Positions 40,803 through 62,011 of a DNA stretch of 64,000 bases are shown here, one piece after another. This DNA comes from Pseudovirgaria hyperparasitica. Its lineage: Eukaryota. The stretch is taken from NCBI GenBank assembly GCA_010093815.1, contig ML996572.1. One strand, given 5' to 3'. The notes under the pieces were generated by a model. The model was not told where the DNA came from, ran no database searches, and was given only the letters and a program-made list of their open reading frames with translations. The translations under genes and the position numbers were made by a program. Within the stretch, counting starts at the first letter, position 1, and every line of letters begins with the position of its first letter.

Positions 40803-43452
40803 ATGGCCGCCACAAATGGCAATCTCGCGCCATCTGATGCTGCGATCGCGACTCCACTATCACCATCTGGTCTCAAGAGAAAGCGCTCTGAAAGTGCAAC
40901 AGGACAGCAGAATGGCGACTCAGTAACACCCTCAAAGCCAGTACCCGAGAGCTCCGAGAAAGAAAACTTCTTTTCTGTACAGAAAGCAGTGCTCGGGATC
41001 CTGGAGAGGTCTGTTTGCGCGCACCGTCTTGACACGCAATCCGGATGCTAATCCTGAGTCTAGCTACGACACCAAGCCTTCTCTGCTAGAGCAACCCATC
41101 CCAGACGTACAACATACCTCATCTGCAGAACATACAGCAAAACGTACAAAGACCTCCGACGAGCCCCAAGCGAGAAGCATTAAGGACAAACTTCAAAATG
41201 GTTCATACATGTCATTCGAGCCACTGCTTGCTGATGTCGAAATCGCCAGCACTCATCTGTTGTCGACAAGCAAGATTGGTAGTGACGACGGCTCTGTACA
41301 ATCTTACAAGCCGCCTTCACTAGCCGAGACACGCCTCATAACAGGAATATATGCTCTGAAGAAGGTCCTCAGGAATCAAGTGCTACGTGAAGTATCTCAG
41401 CGGACCTCGAAGCTTGAGGACTCGGGCAAAGACTCAGGAGCGAAGGTGAATGGAGATGCCGTCAAGTCACCAACGGAAGTAACTGGGACAGAATGTCGCG
41501 TAGCAACTAGTAAGAAAGTGCTGACTATGTTTGCGAACGCCCAGGGACCCAAGACTCTGTTTTCCAGTCTTCAACAGCCTGCACATGTCGAGACTTCTAA
41601 CAAGAATCCCACCGGCTTTAGTACATCTATCGATGTCACGTTGCCAATGAATGATGGCGCTGGTTTACCTGGTATGATCAGAATCACAGAGGCTGTACCT
41701 GTTCAATGCGCCTCTAAACGCACTCCTACAATCGGGGAGCTATTTGCACCACCAGCCACAGTTCCACAATTGAGCCCTCCGAAACCCGCGAAACCATTGA
41801 CAACTAAAGGATCTGTTGTCACGTGGGTTGCAGAAGACTCTCTCTCAAAGTCACATCGAAAAGGAAAGACATACTTTTCCGAGCCACTAGCCACCGGCCA
41901 ATGGCTGGGATATGGTGGTGTTGATTCTTCAGAAGAGCCTACAACACTAGAGGCCAAGGCGAAACATCGCCAGCGCGCGTTGAGTACTGGCGCAGCCCGG
42001 CCTCCAGTACCAGCCGCAGCTGTCGCCGCCTTACAACAAGCCAGAGACGATGCTCTTTTCCGCAGTGCGTTTTCGAGCTTCGCACCAAGCCATGACGATA
42101 CTGTGGCAATAGTTCCATCGAGCATCAAGAACAGAGTCTGGTGGCACAAAATTGGCTCCAAAACGGTCCAAGAGGAAGTGCCCGTCGATCCGGCCTTGTA
42201 CGAGCAAGCTGTTGAGGACGATGCCATGGAGGATGCTCCTGCTGTCGATACTGAGGCAGAAGAAGAAGTATTTAAACAGGTTGTCGAGCACTATGAGGAA
42301 GAAGATCTTGAGGCCGCCTTAGGTCTGCGATCGAAGGAGGACAAAGAAGTCGACGAAGTGCTGAAAGAGATATCCGAGCTGATCGAGACCCTCCACTCGT
42401 ATCAGCGTATCCGCAATTCTACGTTGGCGGGAAATCTACGAACGCCAGTCACTTCAAGCGCACCTGTGCTCAATGGCACTCCGTCCAGTCCGTCATCCGC
42501 AGAAGTTGACATATATAAGATCTTGAGGTCTCAGCTATCGCTTCTCGTCTCTTCATTGCCTCCGTACGCCGTTGCGAAACTCAACGGCGAACAGCTCGCA
42601 GCGCTCAACATCAGCCGCAACATGGTAGTCGAGACTAAGACATACGAGGGAGTCTTGGAAGAGGATCAGGTTTCCAGACTAGCAAAGTCAACGTCCCTCG
42701 GGGCCACACCAAGCAAAGCTGTCGGTGTCACCCCTAACCATTCTACTCCGTTCTCTTCATACGGTAGAGTCCCTCCAGCGACGTCACATGGCCATTCTTC
42801 ACGCCCGTCCACCTACTTCCAACCACAGCAATCTCAAAACGCTCACCGTCCCTCCTATGCTCCGACACCATCGTTCTTCTCAGGTCAGCGGCCCCCATAC
42901 ACGCCACAACCTCCTCGCGGTGGCTATGCCCAGCAGACATACTACCAAGGCCAACCTCGTCCTCCCCCTGGCTACCAAGTCCAGGCCACAACATACTACA
43001 ATTCTCCTGCCGTACCCCAGGCTCAGCACCGTGGTGGCTACACGCCCCAACCGCACGCATACACCGCCCGTCCACAGCCCGTCGCACCCATGTATCCGCC
43101 TGCCGCGCATAGCCCGCATACACGGACTGCATCGCCCCTGAAGCCCACTCCAACCCCGACCCCAATGTATCCGCAACAAAGTCCGTCACGCCCAGGGTCG
43201 TATACCCCGGGACCGCCGCGTCCAAGCTCTTCGAGCTTCCACCCCCAGCAGCAAGGAAGTGGCGCACCGAACGAGATTGGCCCGAGTGGGTTTCACAGTA
43301 GCATGACTGGCGAGCAGCAGCAGAGTATGGTGGATCGACATCGTGCAAATCTAGCAAACGGAGGACGGGCAACGCCAGTCGCGGCGGAGAGCAGGGCGGG
43401 AAGCGGAACTCCAGGTGTGGAGAGGGAGAGTGGTACGCCAATGTCTACATGA
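40803..43452 (+). CDS. Conserved nuclear protein, candidate Rsc58/BRD7-9-like chromatin remodeller subunit
   Basis: ATG 40803 with NLS LKRKR; intron ~41009-41063. SIKDKLQNGSYMSF...D (degenerate bromodomain-like), WLGYGG, ALFRSAFSSFAPSHDD, LPPYAVAKLNGEQL, and a P/Q/Y-rich tail. Confidence 0.7.
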
Positions 43453-51251: not shown

Positions 51252-54200
51252 ATGTTCAATGCCAACGGCCCCCTCCATCGCCCCTCGTCGCTGTCGAGCA
51301 ATCATGGCGCATCCAGATGGCCTAGCCATCTGTCGAATGCGAATCGGACTCGCACTCCTAACATGAGCGATGATGGGGCCGTGTCAAACGCTTCCGGTAA
51401 CAATGGGGGTGAGGGGGTGGATACCTTGGGAGAGGAAGATCGCAGGACTGTGGAGTTTAGGGAACACTACAAGAGGAGTGAAGCATTATTGATGGCTGCA
51501 ATGGGTGATGGCGATGCGAAAATTACCTCTGCCGACGCGCTCTTTGATGATGATCCGGCGCATTCCTTTGCGACAGTGGCCGCCGAGGCCGCACCCCCGA
51601 CCGCGCCTCCGAAGAAGCCTGCGCGAACGATTGACGAAGACGACTACGGAGACGACGATGACGATGATGAAGACAACGAATCCAACGCGTCTCCCCTCAA
51701 ATCAAAAGGCGCGGCCGCCGTCGGAAGTGTTTCCGCCCCCGACAAACACAAATATTCCAATATCACGCGGCCCAACACTGATGGCGCAAAGCCAGAACCA
51801 CCAAAGACTACTGATGAAGTGCGCAAAAAGCTGGAGCAAGATAAAAAAGCGACCGAAGACGCTGCTCGACGAAGCTTCCACACCACCTTCTACACCTACG
51901 AGACTGATCGCGATGCGATGTTGGAACAACAGAAGCTTGACGAACTTGATCGTCAAGTGGAAGCTGAAACTGGTCCAGGTCAGGCACAAGGTCAGAATCA
52001 GAAGAATGGCGCTGCCCCCCCAAATCAACCAGGTACCCTGAGCGGGACAAATCTTGGCGGTTCGGTGAACCTTACGCTTAAGCACTTGATCGCACGAATC
52101 GACCAGAAACGGAACATGGTAAATGCAACAGATACACAGCTGAGAACCTTGATGAGTGAGGTGCGCAAGAATCGTAGCAAATGGGCGAACGAGGATAAGG
52201 TCGGACAAGAAGAGCTATACGAGTCAATGGAGAAAGTCTTGATGGAGCTCAAAGCCATGACCGAACATGCAGGGCCTTTCTTGCAGAAGGTGAATAAGCG
52301 GGATGCCCCGGACTACCACCAGATCATCAAACACCCCATGGACATTGGTACCATGTTGAAGAAACTCAAAGGCTTGCAGTACAAATCAAAGAAAGAGTTC
52401 GTAGACGATTTGATGCTCATCTGGTCCAATTGCCTCAAGTACAACGGCGAGCCCACGCATTTCCTCCGCAAGAAAGCGCTTCACATGAAGAAAGAGACTG
52501 ATAAACTTGTCCCCTTGATACCGGACATCGTGGTCAGGGACCGTGCCGAAATGGAAGCAGAAGAAAGACGCACGCAGAATGGAGATATTGGTGAGCCGGA
52601 GGACAGTGAAGATGGTAAGTTTCAGAGGCTGCTAGCTGTTAGGATCTGTAATCTGACATGTAACCAGAGGAACCAATTATGGCATCACGAGGCCGAAAAG
52701 CGCCAAGCAAGAGTAACAAAAGCTCATCGGCTGCCCGCAAAGCCCCTCCAGCTGGGTCTGAGGGTACACCGGGAGCCGATACAAAGCCTCCTGGGCCTGT
52801 CCTCAACAATGCTGCCTCTAACCTAAAGAATGAATTTCTTCGCGCTGATTCCGATGCGCCACTTGAGGGCAGCATTAATGGCTTTTCAACGCCTCCACCC
52901 GGCAGCGTTACGCCTTTTGGTGCGAACGGTGTACCAGGTAGCAATGCCCCTGGTAGTCAAGTAGACTTCTCAGAGCTCGACGGCGCTGGAACCAACATGG
53001 CTGGCCTAGGGGTAGTCGAGGATGCGGATGACAACGATCTTGAATACAAGACCTGGAAGCTTATAACTAAGAAGGATCGTGCACGAATTGCATCGGAGCG
53101 CCACCGTCGCTTCAAGGGAGATGCCCTCGATCCAGAGCAGCCTGCGATCCTACGAAGCAAAGCTGGTATGAGACGCTGGCTGCGTCGTCGAAAGCAAGCC
53201 GAAGACGACAAGTATCTAGATCCATCAGCTGGACCCGATGGTAAAGACGGAGCGCCTGCTGCCGCCGAGACTTTGGCTGAAGGAATCGAAGAAGAAGATG
53301 ATCGTGACCTTCCCGACTACTATGATCCAGTGTGCGCAATCCCGGACGTCAACCCTAGGCTCAGATGGGTAGAGGACTCTGATGGACAGCTTGTTGAGCA
53401 GAGTGAAGATTTTCTTCGTGTCATTCCGAAAGGTGCTTTCAAAGCCCCCACTGGTCACCTGTCCCAAAAGGTGGAGGACAACATGCGCCAGATGCAAGAT
53501 ACACGTAAAATCTGTGCCAAGATTGGTGTAGTGAAGCAGATGCAACTACAGGCACAGGTAAGTGTCCGATTCAATTTCTACGTACCGCCTAGTGCTAATC
53601 AATCCTAGATGTACCAAAACCAATTCCAGAAATATGATCCTGTCCCATTCGTCGAACAAGACGTTGAGCCCATGGTCGTTACCGATGACGGCCCAGTCAT
53701 GTCTAAGACTACATGCCGCGCTGCACTCCAGAGGAGCGTCGGAAAAATCTTCTATCATGCAGGCTTCGAAGAATTCCAGCCATCTGCATTGGAAGCTATC
53801 ACTGATATAGCTAGCAATTTTTTCAGTCAGTTGGCCACGACGCTGCAGCTATACGGAGAGTTTCCAAAGGTGCCAGAAGAGCGTCCTACCGGAGACGAGA
53901 TAGTATGGAACAGCAGGTTCACTGAGGAGGAGTCTATCCTACATGCTTTAGATAAAAACGGCATCGATATGGAAGGTCTTGAATCATACGTCAAGGACGA
54001 TGTCGAAAGACTAGGCACCAAACTGCTGGGCATGCACGAGCGTATGAAGTATCACTTGGCAGAGCTACTTCGCCCTGCTCTTGACAGCAACGCTGGCGCC
54101 GACGGAGCAGGTGCATTTAATGATGGGAGCGAGCAGTTTGTCAGTGGAGACTTTGCAGAAGATTTCGGCGAGGATTACTTTGGTTTCCGTGAGCTTGGAC

Positions 54201-54730
54201 TTGACCAGGAATTCGGTCTCGCACAGCTCAGTGTTCCCCTACATCTTCTCCAGAATCGCATGCACCACGCGTACCAGGCCCAACACGCCAATACGACAAC
54301 ATCAGTTGGTACGCTCATGGACGAACCAGCGACGTTCGAGCCTGTCACAACGCAGAGCATCACTCAAGAAATTGGCATCATACAAGGATTCTTCCTCAGC
54401 AAGCTCCACGACCATGGAGATCAACCTCTCGTCGAGGATGACAATCTCCCGGCCAAGCAGCGCTTCCCCAAGCCCCGTCTTCCTCCCACCGGCAAGATCT
54501 CAAGTCCGAGGAAACGGCCTATCAGGGAACAGCAACAGCTTGCTCGCAAGAAAAGGAAGCTAGAAGAAAGCAAAGACGATGGCAATGCCAATGCTGGCTC
54601 CAAGCCGATGCCAACTTCGATCAAAAAACTTAAGCTTGACCCACCTGCCAACAAAGATACCGCAGGTGATCCTGAGAAGGACGACGCTAGCGCAGTTGGC
54701 ATGATGAGTCCTGAAAGTATCGCTGCATGA
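51252..54730 (+). CDS. SPT7: SAGA complex bromodomain subunit Spt7
   Basis: [19 protein letters not shown], bromodomain [25 protein letters not shown]...IWSNCLKYN, histone-fold [13 protein letters not shown], and [17 protein letters not shown]. Two introns. Start codon uncertain. Confidence 0.96.
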
Positions 54731-55991
54731 TTTGTATTAACATTTCATTGCAGTCAGTCCCTCGCTGTCCTCGGGGTGCTCTCTAGGTTCCGGGAGCTCC
54801 TCGTCCTGCTCCTACAGCGCACCTTCTACTCCACTAGCCGGACGACGCGCCCACAAATTTGATTCGCAACACCCGAAGGCGATGCGCCGCAACATTCCAC
54901 CACCTAGAACGAGTTCTTCGCGTCGTAATTCAATATCTCGACGACACTCCAGGAGACTCGAACCACAATATGTCTATCCGATATGCGGTCCATTCGTGTA
55001 ACCACGATTGTGGACCTCGGACTCCCCTTGGCGTCGACCCTTCCACTATACACATCTCGTCTTATGAACGACACTACCTGCACGACGTTGGTGTTCTGGC
55101 GCTCTTGTATCCGGCGTTCATATACTACGCTTTTCTTGACCCAGCTTCTCCGAGCTATTCCAAATTCCTCTGCTTCACTACACACGCGAAGCACCACATA
55201 TCGTGCAGGCCGGTCTATCGTCTCCGTTGATTATACCCTTTCTCGGTTTGTGCACAGGAGGAAAGGCTTCTTTTTGTACTTTGTTTTGGGAGGGTCGGAA
55301 TTCATGATATTTCCCCATGGTCTGAGTCTTTGCATCTGGGATGGCTTTGCATGCATACTTTTGATCCTACTGGGCCTAGCGGGTCTTCTTCTATAATATG
55401 AGGGGGAAAAATCCCCCCCCAACAGTCTGTATATATGGCGTCGGCAGGTTTTGATATCGTGGGGCACTGTGGCTAAGGGGTGCGTAGCTCTGTCGGATGT
55501 TGCGTGAGTGTATTAGCGCGTGTGTCTAGTCAGTCGGGAGTGTCTATTCCAAATTTGATTACTTTGAGATGAGCGGGTGTGTGTTCGTGTGTAGTACTTC
55601 TGGCTAATAGTGATGGACAGAGAGTTCTGTAGCGGTAAGAAGTCTGGTAAGAGGCCTTTATGTCATTCATCTACTTCAGTTTATTGTAAAGATCATCTAC
55701 CATCTGCTCGAAACGCTGTACTGCGGTACTTGCTGTACCCCTTTTATGCTACGCCCAGTCAGGGTATAACTCATCAAAATCATGCACTCCGCATACAGAC
55801 GGACATCACCAAGAAGCAGCTCCACGTTCCCGTACCAATCACTATCTTAAGCGTTATATTGCATTACCAGTTGAATGGACAGGTCCTTCTAATGCGCTTG
55901 ATAGCTTGGCGAGAGTCATCCTCAAGATCTAAGGCGCATGGGACTAAAAGAGTATTTTTTTTCTGCACCCCTGGTTCAAATGTCGATGTAG

Positions 55992-57441
55992 CTACACCCT
56001 CGCTTTCACCTCCTTACGCACACCTTCCCCATCCTTGTTTACCCATGGATCCCGAGGTTGCGACAGAAATTGAGGGATCGCAGTTGCAGGAACCTTTGGT
56101 CTCTGCTTGGCCTCGTCGGCCAGGGTGAGCAATACGGACCTCCAGTATGTCTGATCTTGCCACCATACATGCACCCATCTCCGTAAATCTTCCGGGGTAA
56201 CCTTGTCATTCGACCACAGAGCTGCATTCATCGCACCGGTGACCGGATCCGTGGTCAACGGAGTCTCATCCCTCGACCAGGTAACAAGCTGCCCGTCATT
56301 CCGCTTCCGGATGACCCAGTACAACAGTTCACGCCGATGCTGTTTGACCCGGGCCCAGAAATCGACATTCCCCTTATTGATCAATGCAGGCCCGTGGTCT
56401 TCAATCATGCTCATCAGCCCTTCCCCAACCAACTCGCCAGGCTCCTCGTGCAGCGCCCGCTGGAGGCTGAAGCAGTCATACGGCTTCTGCCGCACCCCTC
56501 CCGCGCGCGCCAGCGCTCGCGTCCAGTTCGGCGCCGCCGCAACAAGCTGCACCATCATCAGCCAGTCCTCGTTGTACATGCTGTAGGGAAAGAAGGCCAT
56601 GTGCGTCGTGACGCGCAGCAGGATCGCCGAGCCGCTCACGAACACGTCCTGGCCGAGGCCGACGAGGGGTCGTGCGTGGCCCACGACGCCGTTGTCCGCC
56701 ATGTGGATGGACGGCCAACTGACGGCCTGGAGGTCCGAGTCCTCGCGCATGGCGCGCAGGGCGTAGGCGAGATGCTCGGCGGAGAGGGTCAGGCGGCCGT
56801 CGGTGTAGGGCGTGATGTCGTCGTCGACGAAGAAGACGAATTCCCAGCCTAGGCGTACGGCGAGCATGACTCCTAGGGTGCGTTTCCAGGCTAGGTTGCT
56901 GGCCTTGTGGGCAGCGGTCATTTCGTCCTTTGCGGACTTGAATTTGGGTTGCCACTTCAGTTTGTGTCGGATGTTAGTGTATAGGTTCCCTTTCTTTTTT
57001 GCTTATATCAGGGCGACTTACTGATGGATGAACATCATCGATTTCTACCCGTATAAGTCTATCGTCGCTACCGACGGCCTCGCGGACGCTGTGGAAGTCG
57101 GCTTTGGAAGCTTCGTGGCTTTGAAGCAATAGCAAGGGGCAGTGATGACTTGATGCAAGACTGGCAAGAAAGAGGAGCCCGTCCTTGCTACGAGCATACT
57201 CGTAGCTGGTCGGTACAACAATACCACCTCCGTTCTCAGAGATCAGTGGGCCCCATTCCGATATATCACTTCCTGCGGCAGGACGTGGCGGCCGTTCAGG
57301 ACCGTAGAGACTTGTCAAGAGTTTCGAGTGCGTAGCTCGGTACTGTGCTTCTCTATCATCCTGGAACTCTGGCGGCGGCTCATACGAAGCCGTACGCTTG
57401 GAAGCGTCAAAACACACTTCCCAGTCCTCGTTCAATGCCAT
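55992..57441 (-). CDS. GT-A fold glycosyltransferase-like protein resembling actinobacterial hypothetical proteins
   Basis: Exon 1 has GGIVVPTS...LASSHHCPLLLLQS. Intron 57021-56955 (GTAAGT..ACTAAC..AAG, phase 0). Exon 2 has LAWKRTLGVMLAVRLGWEFVFFVDDDI, QDVFVSGSAILL, FFPYSMYNEDWL and QKPYDCF..RALHEEPGELVGEGL. Confidence 0.72.
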
Positions 57442-57993
57442 CCTATCTAGGAGTTTTGAATTCAGGAACTGTGCTGGGAGGGAGGTCTTTGTGTGGCGGT
57501 TCAAGCTGGCTGGCAGATTTTCAAGACAAGGTCGAGGAAAGACGAGGAAATATCAGCGGTGTTTTGCAACGAATGAAGTGGCTGCGTGTCGCCTTTTATT
57601 GGCTTCTGTCTGTCCTATATCAATCACCATGGTCCTCACATAGCGACAACCCCCCTCCCCTTCCACCGGCTTCGGGGATCTGTTAGTAGCATGCTGCTAA
57701 TACGAAAATACGATGAGAAGTTCTGAAACCGTACCTAAAGCTATCTGACGAGGTGGAATGATCTTGAGGCGAAGCTTTTCTTTAAAGTTTGGGGGCGTCA
57801 ATAATTGATCATGCAAGGCACTCGAATGGAAACGGGCCGTTGACTACTGTTTATGCAAGCCACTCAAGTAGGAATGCGCAGTTGTTATGTTTGCGTCACA
57901 GGCAATTGCATCATCCCAAACAGCTTAAGAACCTCCCTTCCTCACGGTCAGAAGACTTGCTGGAATAGCCGCTAGGAGAACCTTAACTTCAAT

Positions 57994-59249
57994 ATGTGTG
58001 ATCAAGTAGCGAAAACACCTAAACACCACGTGGTCGATTACCGGACCATCGCCAAAGATGCGCCTCCTGAAGTTCGTAAGGAGGCTCTCAAAGCTGTTGA
58101 TGATGCCCTTCGCTCTCATGGATTCTTCTACCTATCTCATCATAGTGTTCCTCCACCTCTCCTTGCTGCAGCTTTCGATTGGGTATGTCAGCCATCACAA
58201 TTGAACGTGTGCGGAACAGAACAATAGTCTAATGCAGCATCTAGATGAAAAAGTTCTTCGCATTGCCACATGAAGTCAAGTCGCTCGCCCGTCGTTCTAA
58301 GGATCCCTTCGATCCTCGTGGATACACCATTGTTGGTGACGCGGTCCTGGATCAGGAGCACCAGCCTCATACTCTGGGCGAGCTTGCAGAAGCAAGAGCT
58401 AAAGCGCCAGTCGAACAACGAGAGACACTCGAGCTCGGGTGTCCACATGCGACCAACCAGAGTCCCAACAAATTGTTGCCAGAGGAAATCTTCCCTGGCT
58501 TCGCCGGATGGTTGGATGAATGGTGGGACACAACTATGGTAAATTAAATCCCCCCCAGCCCGAATTTCCCACGAAGACAGATAGAAGGAACATAGAAAGT
58601 CATGCTAATACAATTTTGACAGCGCCTCCAGTTGAGCTTGATGGAGTGTTTTGATGAAATCCTTCTTGGGGAGAATGCAAGCTCAGGCGAAGGTCTGGTC
58701 AGCCAGCAAGACCTTGACCAGAGTTATTCCAACATGAGTCTGATCCATTACCACAATATGGCGATATCAGACATAAAGAATGGTACTGCAAGCCGTTGCA
58801 ATGCTCACACCGATTCCAGTCAGCTTACGCTCTTGTTCCAAGACGACGTCGGCGGACTAGAGGTTTTGGACCAGAGCACACCGAACGGGCAGGCAAAATT
58901 TGTTCCCGTACCCCCAGTCCCGGGTATGATGATTGTGCAGCTAGGCGACATGCTTGAGAAGCAGTCAAACGGACGATGGCGCAGCGCATTGCATAGAGTC
59001 ACAGCTCCCTCATCCAAGAGAGACTCTGTCCACGCTACTACGCCTTCGGCCGGCACAGAAGGCACGCTGCAGGATCGCTACTCGGTTGCAGTCTTTGTCT
59101 ATCCTCAATTTGACACGGTGATCAAGCCTTTGCCCGGGTGCTCAGACAAGGGTCCATGGAACAGCTTCGACTGGGGTAGCGTACAGACGGCGGGAGAGTG
59201 GTGGCGCAAGAGGATCGAACTGGAATTCGGGAAATATGCCAGCAGCTGA
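57994..59249 (+). CDS. 2-oxoglutarate/Fe(II)-dependent dioxygenase (IPNS/DIOX_N family)
   Basis: ALRSHGFFYLSHHSV, KKFFALPHEVK, RGY, HTDSSQLTLLFQDDVGGLEV, GDMLEKQSNGRWRSALHRV and RYSVAVF (HxD..H..RxS). Introns ~58183-58244 and ~58540-58622. Confidence 0.93.
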
Positions 59250-60385
59250 GGACGTAAACAGCCGAGACGCGGTTAGCTTGAGGCTGTTTGTGATTCCACT
59301 GTGCCTTGTTGTATCTAGTAAACTACCGTCTCGAGGTTAGCCTTTCTAATTCCATCACGCGGTTTTTCTATCGAGGTAGTACCCCGTTTGTGAAAATATT
59401 ATTCAAAAACAACTGTGAAACCAGCATTTTCTGTTCTACTAACCTATCCTGTCGTCCAAAGGATGCGAAATCCAACACCTCATTGGCTCCTGCAACAAAC
59501 CATGCAGAGAAGCTACTGCGGATAGCATCGGCCTCTAAAGCTTGCATCGACTTAAAGCTATATGACATACCGTGATACCCCGGCCTACAGGGTGTTCTCG
59601 TTTAGGGGATTCTTTAAGCACAAGCAGATGCGTGAGAGAGTATGGCATGATTGAAAACACAAAAAATAAAAAAAGAACTTGTCCAAGTACGTAAGTAAAT
59701 GAGGGGAAATACCCCCGTTAAGTTCATGTCATTCGTCCGAGCCACCCTAATTGGTGCTTACTTATCCCCACAATAGAAGGGCCGTCTAGTAGAAGACACT
59801 GCGCGAATAACGACTTGTGCACGTGAACAGAGCCAGGCACCGCGTCCTCTAACTATATGGGAATATCTAAGGCTTGTGCAAAAAAAAATTTCGTTCAAAA
59901 GGTGCAGCTACAATATGGCTTACTGAACTTGACTCGGAAGAAAGAATGCTGTTTAGGTGGCTTTGATTCGAATGATAAAAGTGAAGATGAAGATAGTAAA
60001 CAAAGCATAAAGCTTATTATATTGACGGATCCGTTATACGTCGTTAGTAGGCTGAGCCGAGCCTTTAAAGCCAACAAGCTAGGAAGAATGGGGAAATTCT
60101 CCTGAAGCTAAAATTGACGTTGCCCAACTCACCGCCAGGCTTAATACACAGTACGCCCACATTCGAAGTAGACAACATCGGATGACAGTTTGAAACAGTG
60201 TCTAGTGATGTGCCGAAAAACTCTCCCTAGGGTGGCCTGGTACACATCTTTTCCATGATGGATCAAGTCAGTAATGTACCATTGAGGACGACGGAGCCGA
60301 GACACTCAGATGCCTATTTATTAACTGAGTGTAGGACTCAAATTTAGCTCTTCCCACATATTGATAGTATTAACTACTTTCAAAT

Positions 60386-62011
60386 ATGTGGTCTCGTCTC
60401 AGGAGCAAAAGCCGTCGACCTCCGTTCCTCCTGCACTACCGTTCGGCGGAGTGGTTTATTGTCACGTCCATTGCCATTGCAATCTTCAGCGAGACTCTGA
60501 TCTACGCCATCTTCATCCCAGTCCTCCCCTTTGCCTTAGTCTCACGAGCTAGAGTAGAGAGGGATGAGGTACAACGGTGGACGGCCACGCTTCTGGCCGT
60601 CCATGCAGGCTTCCAGATTGCGTTTTCGCCGCTGTCCGGCTGGATTGCCGACAGAACCTCCACGAGACGAGGACCCCTACTGCTCTCCTACCTCCTGCTC
60701 GCAGGGGCCACGCTTCTCCTCATGTTCGGACGCTCGATTGGGACCTTCATCGCCGCAAGAGCTTTGCAGGGAGCCGCTGCCGCCGCCGGCTGGACTATTG
60801 GACTTGCGCTGCTCGTCGACACCGTTGGCGTCGACCAGATGGGCGAAGCGTCGGGCTGGGTGTCGTTCAGCTCAAACGTAGGCATCCTGTCTGGGCCGCT
60901 GCTCGGCGGGGTGCTGTATGAGAAGGCCGGCTACTACTCCGTCTTCTACATGTGTCTTGGGATCATCGCCTTGGACATTGTGCTCCGGCTGTTGATTGTG
61001 GAGAAACGCGTTGCCAGGAGATGGCTGGAGGAGAAGAGGCATACGCAATCGATCGACGATGCAGAAAAGGCTGATCCGCAACAAGGTTCACCCTCCCCTA
61101 CCTCAGCCCCCGTGATCGAAGTTAAGCAGGGCGTGCCGTCGTCGTCAGTCTCCAACCTCGACTCCACAAGTCACGACTCGATCACACCACAGCCTCCTCC
61201 TCCTCCTCCTGCGGAAGAATCACCATCACGAGTCCCAGACCAAACCACCGAAAGCAACACACCAACACAACCACCACACACCACGCCACACCCACCCGCA
61301 ATCTGGACCATCCTCACCTCCAAACGCATCCTCGTCCCCCTCTGGGCCGCCCTCGTCGCCGCAACAATCAGCACCTCCTTCGACACCATCCTCCCCATCC
61401 GCGTCGCCAACCTCTTCCACTTCAACAGCCTCGGCGCCGGCCTCATCTTCCTCGCCATCATCATCCCCACGCTCGCCAGCGCGCTCGTCGGCAAACTCAC
61501 CGACCGCCTCGGCGCCCGCCTCATCACCACCGCCGGCTTCCTGGTCCTCAGCCCGACGCTCGTCTGCCTCCGCTTCGTCGACCACGACTCCGTCGCGCAG
61601 AAAGCGCTGCTGTGCGCGCTGCTCGCCGTCTGCGGCGCGGCGTCCAGCATGCTGCTTGTGCCCGTCATGGCCGAGGTCGCGCACTGCGTCGAGAGCGCGC
61701 AGAAGATGCATCCGGAGAGGTTTGGCGCCCAGGGCGCGTTTGCTCAGGGGTATGGGGTGATGAATGGGATTTATGCTGTGGGGACGCTGGTCGGGCCGAT
61801 TTGGAGTGGGTTCATGATTGATGGTACGGACTGGGCGACGACGACGTGGACGCTGGGCCTGCTGGCCGGCGTCACGGCAATTCCAATGTTTCTCCTGCTT
61901 GGGGGCTGGGTTGGGCGGAGGGGCTGGAAGGCTGAGCTGCTGAGTCCGGAGAGCGAAGGGGTGAGGAAGGATAGGGAGTCCAAGGCGCTTGTCGCGGTCG
62001 AAAAGGTATAG
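60386..62011 (+). CDS. MFS transporter (vesicular amine transporter / DHA1-like family)
   Basis: Intronless 541 aa with ~12 hydrophobic segments. GWIADRTSTRRGPLL, ARALQG, LALLVDTVG, GPLLGGVLYE, GKLTDRLG, AQGYG...GTLVGP. Confidence 0.92.
   Translation: MWSRLRSKSRRPPFLLHYRSAEWFIVTSIAIAIFSETLIYAIFIPVLPFALVSRARVERDEVQRWTATLLAVHAGFQIAFSPLSGWIADRTSTRRGPLLLSYLLLAGATLLLMFGRSIGTFIAARALQGAAAAAGWTIGLALLVDTVGVDQMGEASGWVSFSSNVGILSGPLLGGVLYEKAGYYSVFYMCLGIIALDIVLRLLIVEKRVARRWLEEKRHTQSIDDAEKADPQQGSPSPTSAPVIEVKQGVPSSSVSNLDSTSHDSITPQPPPPPPAEESPSRVPDQTTESNTPTQPPHTTPHPPAIWTILTSKRILVPLWAALVAATISTSFDTILPIRVANLFHFNSLGAGLIFLAIIIPTLASALVGKLTDRLGARLITTAGFLVLSPTLVCLRFVDHDSVAQKALLCALLAVCGAASSMLLVPVMAEVAHCVESAQKMHPERFGAQGAFAQGYGVMNGIYAVGTLVGPIWSGFMIDGTDWATTTWTLGLLAGVTAIPMFLLLGGWVGRRGWKAELLSPESEGVRKDRESKALVAVEKV

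Follow-up and report, generated by a model that had tools for sequence, protein, structure and literature searches.

The window studied here is a 64,000-nucleotide stretch of contig ML996572.1 (assembly GCA_010093815.1) of the fungus Pseudovirgaria hyperparasitica. On its minus strand, at 57441-55992, lies a two-exon gene for a predicted glycosyltransferase (GT) of the GT-A fold. A sequence-only reading of the locus had proposed that two open reading frames (ORFs) join through a 67-nt intron into one protein of about 460 aa, and that the gene was passed from a bacterium to the fungus and gained its intron afterward. The relatives, distribution, phylogeny, and location of the gene described below give good support to such a transfer. 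The gene has the following parts.

57441-57022, minus strand: exon 1, 420 nt, 140 codons, with the ATG at 57441-57439
57222-57208, minus strand: GGGIVVPT motif in the exon 1 translation
57021-56955, minus strand: predicted spliceosomal intron of 67 nt, phase 0, GTAAGT ... ACTAAC ... AAG
56954-55992, minus strand: exon 2, 320 codons and a TAG stop (55994-55992)
56895-56897, minus strand: codon of N160 (family position D151); the invariant Arg of the KR motif follows five residues later
56817-56825, minus strand: DDD (D184-D186), the DxD metal and nucleotide-sugar motif directly after strand beta4
56562-56576, minus strand: YNEDW (Y267-W271), an xED-like acidic pair at a helix N-terminus
56400-56900, minus strand: GC-rich core of the coding sequence, with GC up to 0.715

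Joined in phase 0, exons 1 and 2 encode 460 aa with a single, terminal stop, which confirms that the two ORFs join in frame across the predicted 67-nt intron. Exon 1 supplies the N-terminal portion of a Rossmann-like nucleotide-binding half (YRATHS..L..LY..RP; GGGIVVPT), a region that aligns without gaps with the N-termini of the fungal and Kineosporia-like homologues and retains the family-conserved H38, P77, and S108. Exon 2 carries the KR(T) helix, DDD, a DNG..HAR loop, Q242, FFP..YNEDW, Q296, RA..EE.G..EG, and a C-terminal helical domain; the stretch of its translation that contains DDD is KRTLGVMLAVRLGWEFVFFVDDDI. Every motif quoted in the sequence-only reading (IVVPT, KR..DDD, GSAILL, YNEDW, RA..EE.G..EGL) can be found in the translations, the last three as GSAILL, FFPYSMYNEDW, and YDCF..RA..EEPGELVGEGL. 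Conservation was assessed in alignment A2, which holds 136 sequences selected from the search matches; those dropped were mostly short fragments and the longest fused forms. The three DDD positions are Asp in 135, 135, and 136 of the 136 members, and YNEDW is similarly constant (Y 134, N 135, E 130, D 136, W 136), so that its acidic pair is a candidate for the catalytic base position. The window protein keeps 40 of the 46 family-conserved positions, the exceptions being, in family numbering, R71Y, D151N, N157T, L160V, S220G, and R227P (R226 is present). Five of these six are shared with P0006, an orthologue from the Sphaerulina cluster; D151N is not (P0006 has D) and recurs in the Teratosphaeria-type P0007 and P0017. 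Over 152 codons shared with a Sphaerulina-like metagenome locus (L084), dN is 0.395 and synonymous sites are saturated (NG86 dS undefined), values that would fit long purifying selection. No membrane segment was found in the window protein (peak KD19 hydropathy 1.5), and it is probably cytosolic.

The intron can be placed by comparison with homologues. There are 27 frame-preserving GT..AG pairs in 56880-57100, and the pair 57021/56955 alone keeps the homology-aligned residues, giving the junction VHPS/WQPKF as compared with VHES/WRPGL in the bacterial homologues. An ACTAAC sequence sits 17 nt upstream of the intron end, and a frame that retained the intron would meet a TAA within it. The signals are similar to those of the two introns removed from the neighboring 2-oxoglutarate (2OG) oxygenase gene (GTATGT..CTAAT..TAG, 62 nt, and GTAAAT..GCTAAT..CAG, 84 nt). 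In the Sphaerulina cluster, a read-through gene call (P0005) carries a 30-aa insert exactly at the intron site of the window, while P0006 and the NCBI model P0024 are without it, and the same site is annotated as spliced in S. musiva. Because the insert lies at the same site in P0005 and is missing from P0006 and P0024, the intron would be older than the split between the window and Sphaerulina lineages.

Searches of Pfam, NCBIfam, PADLOC, and PDB sequences with the window protein returned nothing meaningful; sub-threshold matches to LysR_substrate (E 0.051), FieF (E 0.07/0.012), and geminin (E 0.12) were dismissed. Two family members have weak sub-threshold Pfam matches, P0019 to DUF2064 (E 0.0023) and P0043 to TAGT (E 1.5e-4), both of which we take to be GT-A-clan families. 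A word-indexed search of 5.8 billion proteins gave 21 matches at E ≤ 1e-3: the window's own ORF, 5 fungal-type clusters at 57-72% identity (among them Teratosphaeria nubilosa and Sphaerulina musiva KAL9526708.1), 9 at 46-50% that include Kineosporia rhizophila and K. babensis, and 6 at ∼30% that include Paractinoplanes globisporus. A profile of those matches reached 1401 clusters of 50% identity at E ≤ 1e-3 and 653 at E ≤ 1e-30. From contigs of one genome per species, 193 stretches were confirmed by tblastn and 79 loci were kept; 78 of them are Actinomycetota by record title (Kribbella, Amycolatopsis, Nonomuraea, Actinoplanes, Dactylosporangium, Lentzea, Kineosporia, and others), and one comes from a Tepidisphaeraceae metagenome-assembled genome. 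The spliced protein is 54-71% identical to the fungal copies, 42-49% to the Kineosporia-like ones over ∼440 aa, and ≤39% to all others; the metagenome scan contributed one close relative, L084, the other 79 loci of that scan standing at 26-39% identity. The proposal that the family belongs to Actinobacteria and not to the standard fungal GT families therefore agrees with its nearest non-fungal relatives, which are bacterial and come from Kineosporia; outside these fungi the family is nearly confined to soil actinobacteria. The patchy fungal distribution that a transfer had led one to expect is also seen: the fungal copies found are those of the window, S. musiva, and T. nubilosa plus three further sequences only, and the sequence searches found no homologues in eukaryotes other than these few fungi.

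A quick maximum-likelihood (ML) tree was built from 68 rows, for which L001-L045 were taken from the 79 loci and joined by 10 of the representatives and 12 close proteins. In it, the 6 fungal rows form one clade with a Shimodaira-Hasegawa-like approximate likelihood ratio (SH-aLRT) support of 100, and a 15-row clade of fungi plus Kineosporia-like sequences is also supported at 100. A careful ML tree of 40 rows by 501 columns (LG+C20+F+G4 with posterior mean site frequencies, PMSF) omits 28 of the 68 rows, all of them outgroup loci, and recovers the fungal clade at 100/100, the fungi with nine Kineosporia-like rows at 100/100, and a 13-row subset without P0011 and P0013 at 97/96. In this tree the joint clade lies several supported nodes deep among bacterial sequences, so that the fungal copies branch within the bacterial radiation with support. 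Inside the fungal clade, a Teratosphaeria-type pair stands opposite a group of the window, P0004, and Sphaerulina, as vertical descent within Mycosphaerellales would predict.

The bacterial genes have a settled context. Crude gene calling recovered the target in 63 of the 79 loci; in 53 of these 63, Kineosporia included, its immediate upstream neighbor in the same orientation comes from a single cluster. The upstream protein is ∼360-400 aa long (for example, L001 6289-7485, plus strand); in the three members checked, an N-terminal HTH_31 (XRE-type) domain precedes ∼330 residues that match nothing in Pfam. In 29 loci the next gene downstream encodes a GNAT acetyltransferase; these proteins fall into clusters of 17 and 12, from each of which two were checked. 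Since the HTH_31 gene is upstream in 53 of 63 loci, the bacterial copies are vertical residents of their genomes. K. aurantiaca has three copies in total, and a paralogue follows the close homologue in two Kineosporia loci.

L001 9045-10325 and L002 9045-10352, plus strand: Kineosporia paralogue after the close homologue, 32-33% identical to the window protein over ∼266 aa

Fusions with GNAT, hexapeptide-repeat, or alpha/beta-hydrolase domains occur in some members of the family. We also note double-length or fused members (P0041, 797 aa; P0042, 773 aa; P0085; P0087; P0130; P0156), and the two matched stretches in the double-length ones suggest tandem domains. No relatives of the bacterial partner genes were found in the window, from which it would follow that the fungal enzyme works without them.

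Taken together, we put the probability at about 85% that this is an intact two-exon GT-A gene that passed from a bacterium to a fungus in a single acquisition near Kineosporia and gained its intron later. The bacterium-to-fungus direction is inferred because the diversity of the family is hundreds of times greater in actinobacteria, because the Kineosporia copies keep the usual upstream gene and have paralogues, and because the gene was found in no other eukaryote. In this history, an ancestor of a few Mycosphaerellales-type fungi would have acquired the gene once from an actinobacterium close to Kineosporia, and the gene would have become integrated into a normal chromosome region, with an SPT7-like gene on one side and the 2OG oxygenase and transporter genes on the other. 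It would then have gained one phase-0 spliceosomal intron, common to the Sphaerulina lineage, and would have been under purifying selection since.

The surroundings of the gene are those of a eukaryotic chromosome. A bromodomain/Bromo_TP (SPT7-like) gene, with its end near 54730, flanks it on one side; on the other lie a divergent 2OG-Fe(II) oxygenase gene (DIOX_N, 2OG-FeII_Oxy) and then a major facilitator superfamily (MFS) transporter gene, with a UDG-family gene farther upstream.

57976-59325, plus strand: 2OG-Fe(II) oxygenase gene, ∼550 bp from the target gene and divergently transcribed
60386-62011, plus strand: MFS transporter gene, intron-less, with GC at third codon positions (GC3) averaging 0.74 and rising to 0.89-0.92 over the final third

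The relatives of the MFS gene are all fungal, the best at 38-45% identity over 89-99% coverage and 48-51% over ∼40%. Transcript-like contigs were available from two public runs, X1 and X2, of one sample, for which the kind of run is not on record; of the 9 kb compared (52000-61000), they cover only 55935-59325. X1 contig 2 (3093 nt) has both introns of the 2OG gene removed, at 58182-58243 (62 nt) and 58538-58621 (84 nt), and then runs unbroken through the whole target gene, which suggests that the region around the target gene is transcribed. Because this contig spans both genes, the target is physically tied to its eukaryotic neighbor in other data, and the location among host genes, for which the sequence-only reading had proposed a check of contiguity, is borne out. 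The target and 2OG genes may share a bidirectional promoter or have overlapping transcripts.

The GC-rich core deserves separate comment, as it had been listed with the signs of transfer. It is real relative to its flanks: the window averages 0.489 GC, and the segment 56600-56799 climbs to 0.715, with GC3 at 0.82-0.92 in codons 151-300 and down to 0.44-0.56 where the gene begins and ends. GC of ≥0.65 occurs in 13 of 1277 windows of 200 nt, 5 of them in the core, 6 in the MFS gene, and 2 at 43001-43250; the MFS island at 61351-61800 has the highest GC of the whole stretch (maximum 0.725). Because a native-looking MFS gene 4 kb away, with only fungal relatives, has the same feature, the core as a signature of foreign origin or of the donor was ruled out. 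The third short island (0.655-0.66 at 43001-43250) falls within a long ORF at 40927-43449. A GC-rich core and a bacterial-looking protein are what one would also see if the gene came from bacterial contamination or a chimeric assembly join. We find this scarcely credible, since the reading frame needs a canonical fungal intron, the GC of the whole gene is 0.586 as opposed to 0.72 in Kineosporia genes (whose homologues have GC3 of 0.92-0.93), and orthologues are present in two named fungal genome annotations. The gene also sits inside a contig of 1,656,338 bp with intron-bearing eukaryotic genes on both sides, and the contig that joins it to the spliced 2OG gene comes from other runs, perhaps of the same organism or sample.

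Several observations count against a transferred, intact, and spliced gene. Both contigs that cover the intron site, X1 contig 2 and X2 contig 6, keep the 67 nt, so splicing, and even sense-strand expression, is a prediction. An intron-keeping contig may represent pre-mRNA, an antisense transcript, or true intron retention. Because the contigs give no strand, lose minor forms, and keep the intron, the evidence for splicing at 57021/56955 is comparative, and we would describe it as strong. The predicted junction thus stands as to its canonical signals and its being the only homology-keeping pair, and it finds no match in the available contigs. The same contigs are the argument for a decaying or non-functional copy in which the insert is not removed and the product is a truncated 155 aa or nothing at all, particularly as the introns of the neighboring gene are removed in the same contig. 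We regard such decay as very unlikely: both exons are open with 40 of 46 conserved positions intact, the splice signals are canonical and like those of two verified host introns, the S. musiva annotation also splices here, and strandless contigs that drop minor isoforms may run through the gene as antisense or pre-mRNA. A further point of this kind is family position D151, which is D in 129 of 136 members and N in the window.

Other points concern the origin of the gene. The approximately unbiased (AU) test does not reject a topology that keeps the nine Kineosporia-like rows apart from the fungi (delta lnL 3.79, p 0.287), and for this reason the donor may have belonged to a lineage sister to Kineosporia and not to Kineosporia. 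The expected nesting of the fungi in a bacterial clade accordingly holds as one clade deep inside the bacterial family; strict nesting within the Kineosporia-like subclade is not significant. Both trees were read unrooted, so the direction of transfer rests on the distribution and the conserved bacterial operon, and the sequences between the Kineosporia-like clade and actinobacteria of known name (P0043-P0061) are metagenome proteins. A vertical history within Mycosphaerellales would require many losses. Among 401 evenly sampled genomes of the phylum, one matched at E ≤ 1e-10, and this was the Kineosporia query genome; four candidates were scored per genome, and the count is not a prevalence figure. 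The relatives of the neighboring MFS gene reach ≤51% identity at partial coverage and ≤45% at full coverage, so the host is without a close sequenced relative for this gene, and synteny with the Sphaerulina-like contig L084 was not found. L084 (1-3419) is a metagenome contig that ends in the 3′ part of a Sphaerulina-type orthologue; its downstream neighbor is an intron-bearing zinc alcohol dehydrogenase gene (ADH_N, ADH_zinc_N) and not an SPT7-like gene.

An unrooted tree in which the fungi are monophyletic and, by the AU test, may stand as sister to the Kineosporia-like clade could also be produced by an ancient vertical gene lost nearly everywhere, its likeness to Kineosporia being due to slow evolution or to transfer from fungus to bacterium. 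This strikes us as highly improbable. Just 5 fungal-type 90% clusters besides the window ORF turned up among the 5.8 billion sequences and the 1.84 billion cluster representatives searched, the fungi and the Kineosporia-like clade sit several supported nodes deep among bacteria, and the Kineosporia copies keep the upstream HTH gene and have paralogues. The identity between fungi and Kineosporia (42-49%) moreover exceeds that of either to other actinobacterial members (∼30-39%). We therefore retain the bacterium-to-fungus transfer followed by intron gain.

The fold of the protein was examined with an AlphaFold (AF2) model of the orthologue P0006, which is 63% identical to the window protein, made from the 136-row alignment. 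The model has a mean predicted local distance difference test score (pLDDT) of 92.5 and a predicted template-modeling score (pTM) of 0.92; a model of window exon 2 (AF2, md0f3738d3101) has a pLDDT of 84.4. The P0006 model shows the GT-A fold, in which a mixed sheet comes after an N-terminal beta/alpha/beta sheet of Rossmann type. DDD follows strand 170-174, at the end of beta4, and the E-D pair of YNEDW opens helix 260-271, so that in the model the two motifs appear at the classical DxD and xED positions. Every match listed by Foldseek is a GT-A enzyme (E ∼1e-6). Against 48,161 representatives, VIA-align places MtdL first (Z 18.9, root-mean-square deviation (rmsd) 3.5, 273 residues), then rice UAM2 (16.9), then PcManGT and MPGS (14.4), with 110 chains at Z ≥ 8. 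Over 999 chains, all 7 GT75 entries come out on top (Z 17.4-19.1, rmsd 3.5-3.8, 262-276 residues aligned), the next family being MPGS at Z 14.4-15.3, and the exon 2 model gives the same order (MtdL 10.7, UAM2 9.6, next 8.3). The closest solved structures are thus those of GT75, with the core and C-terminal helices included in the match. GT2 fares differently: its Pfam model matches neither the window exons (E ≤ 1) nor 25 family members (E ≤ 0.01), and in the ESM Atlas, GT2-bearing clusters appear only as distant look-alikes (0.93-0.94). Of the GT-A, GT2-like layout that had been proposed, the GT-A fold with a DxD after strand 4 is upheld, and the nearest fold is GT75, not GT2.

GT75 enzymes, as described in PMC9937993, self-glycosylate an arginine and, with Mn2+, interconvert nucleoside diphosphate (NDP)-pyranose and NDP-furanose; the same source names D87, R90, D109-D111, R159, D195, Q229, R257, D260, and H287 as key residues of MtdL and calls the core and C-terminal helices unique to GT75. 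With the same origin by transfer, the present protein could be a GT75-like, metal-dependent NDP-sugar pyranose/furanose mutase or could self-glycosylate through an active-site arginine. We hold this to be possible and somewhat doubtful. In its favor is the structural ranking, in which the 7 GT75 entries stand 2-4 Z units over every other GT-A family. For a profile comparison, MtdL and 42 relatives were recovered, and hhalign pairs KRN..DDD of the family with RRN..DDD of GT75 (DDD 109-111 of MtdL) and places the sugar-binding D87 of MtdL near N160 of the window protein. With the first D of DxD taken as zero, the invariant residues of the family fall at +51/+52 (R), +86 (D), +112 (Q), and +122/+126 (R..E), and MtdL has R159 at +50, D195 at +86, Q229 at +120, and R257/D260 at +148/+151, a resemblance that comes from our own arithmetic and not from an alignment; in P0006 the residues at those spacings are Arg 226 or 227, D261, Q287, R297, and E301. 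Against GT75-like chemistry, the hhalign match is limited to 115-116 N-terminal columns (probability 69-71%, E ∼4e-5), and Pfam RGP PF03214 finds nothing in the window protein, in 25 family members, or in two Kineosporia genomes with genes of this family, while the same search does recover true GT75 genes, MtdL included, in 4 of 401 genomes of the class. The GT75 motifs PRG[FY]P, NSQN, H.R..H, and R..D are not recognizable in the family, and no His conserved at ≥90% occurs after H224, leaving no evident counterpart of the Mn ligand His287 of MtdL. Because PF03214 finds no match, the hhalign match is N-terminal only, and a Mn-ligand His is not evident, we file the protein as GT-A, in neither GT75 nor GT2.

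Within this assignment, the enzyme would bind an NDP-sugar and a divalent cation through K164/R165 and D184-D186, and the sugar would be acted on by an invariant polar set comprising D227-N228, H233, R235, Q242, E269-D270, Q296, R306, and E310-E311. In our estimate there is an even chance that the sugar is transferred, either to a small acceptor or onto the enzyme; a rearrangement of the sugar ring as in the GT75 mutases is a lesser prospect, and we think it rather unlikely. A bolder proposal, which we consider decidedly unlikely, is that a new GT-A family, sister to GT75, has its first eukaryotic representative in the fungal protein, which would use an active-site arginine and a divalent metal for self-glycosylation or for conversion of NDP-pyranose to NDP-furanose. 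A few Mycosphaerellales fungi would then have gained from actinobacteria a route to a furanose sugar nucleotide that is independent of flavin adenine dinucleotide, with the 2OG oxygenase and MFS genes possibly completing a small pathway.

No publication on the gene or its family came up in the literature searches. The family itself is the more useful product of this work, since it comprises 1401 clusters of GT-A proteins that are named by neither Pfam nor NCBIfam and whose nearest structural relatives are the unusual GT75 mutases, and one of the fungi with a copy, Sphaerulina musiva, is genetically tractable and so suited to a search for the substrate.

Among known systems, GT75 (the MtdL/Hyg20 GDP-sugar mutases and the plant RGP/UAM UDP-arabinopyranose mutases) shares the GT-A fold, the DDD that follows beta4, a helix with R-N-x-G that lies 19 residues before this DDD, and a match that spans the Rossmann half, the core, and the C-terminal helices; its members are likewise soluble, ∼370-460 aa long, and present in actinomycetes. 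The two differ in that identity in the structural alignments is only 13-14% and that the present family is ∼60 residues longer at the N-terminus and also has the longer helical tail. The inverting GT2-type enzymes (SpsA, GlfT2, BcsA, hyaluronan synthase, TarS/TarP) have the same strand order and DxD, with an xED-like acidic pair at a helix start ∼85 residues after DxD (VIA Z 11-13), but they score lower than GT75 and have other invariant residues, and the present family is without their membrane or polymer-channel parts. The retaining enzymes MPGS (GT55), MGS (GT78), and GpgS (GT81) are soluble GT-A proteins with small acceptors and a helical C-terminal part and rank second as a structural group (Z 13.4-15.3, with as many as 303 residues aligned); they are set apart by rmsd values of 4.1-5.2, by a lack of sequence similarity, and by a C-terminal metal His that is not conserved in the present family. 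As a transfer, the gene adds one well-documented ordinary case to a long catalogue, in which an alpha-amylase transfer in Basidiomycetes is reportedly another case with later intron gain. A 2024 survey counts 20,093 prokaryote-derived genes in 750 fungal genomes, 36% of them from Actinobacteria, with a median of 19 per genome in Dothideomycetes and frequent intron gain (PMC11708051). In the part of its horizontal gene transfer table covered here, this gene or family is absent and no best hit is to K. rhizophila, K. babensis, or K. aurantiaca. The catalogued prokaryote-to-fungus transfers (PMC11708051) resemble the present case in having an actinobacterial donor, a metabolic enzyme, a patchy distribution, purifying selection, and a later intron.

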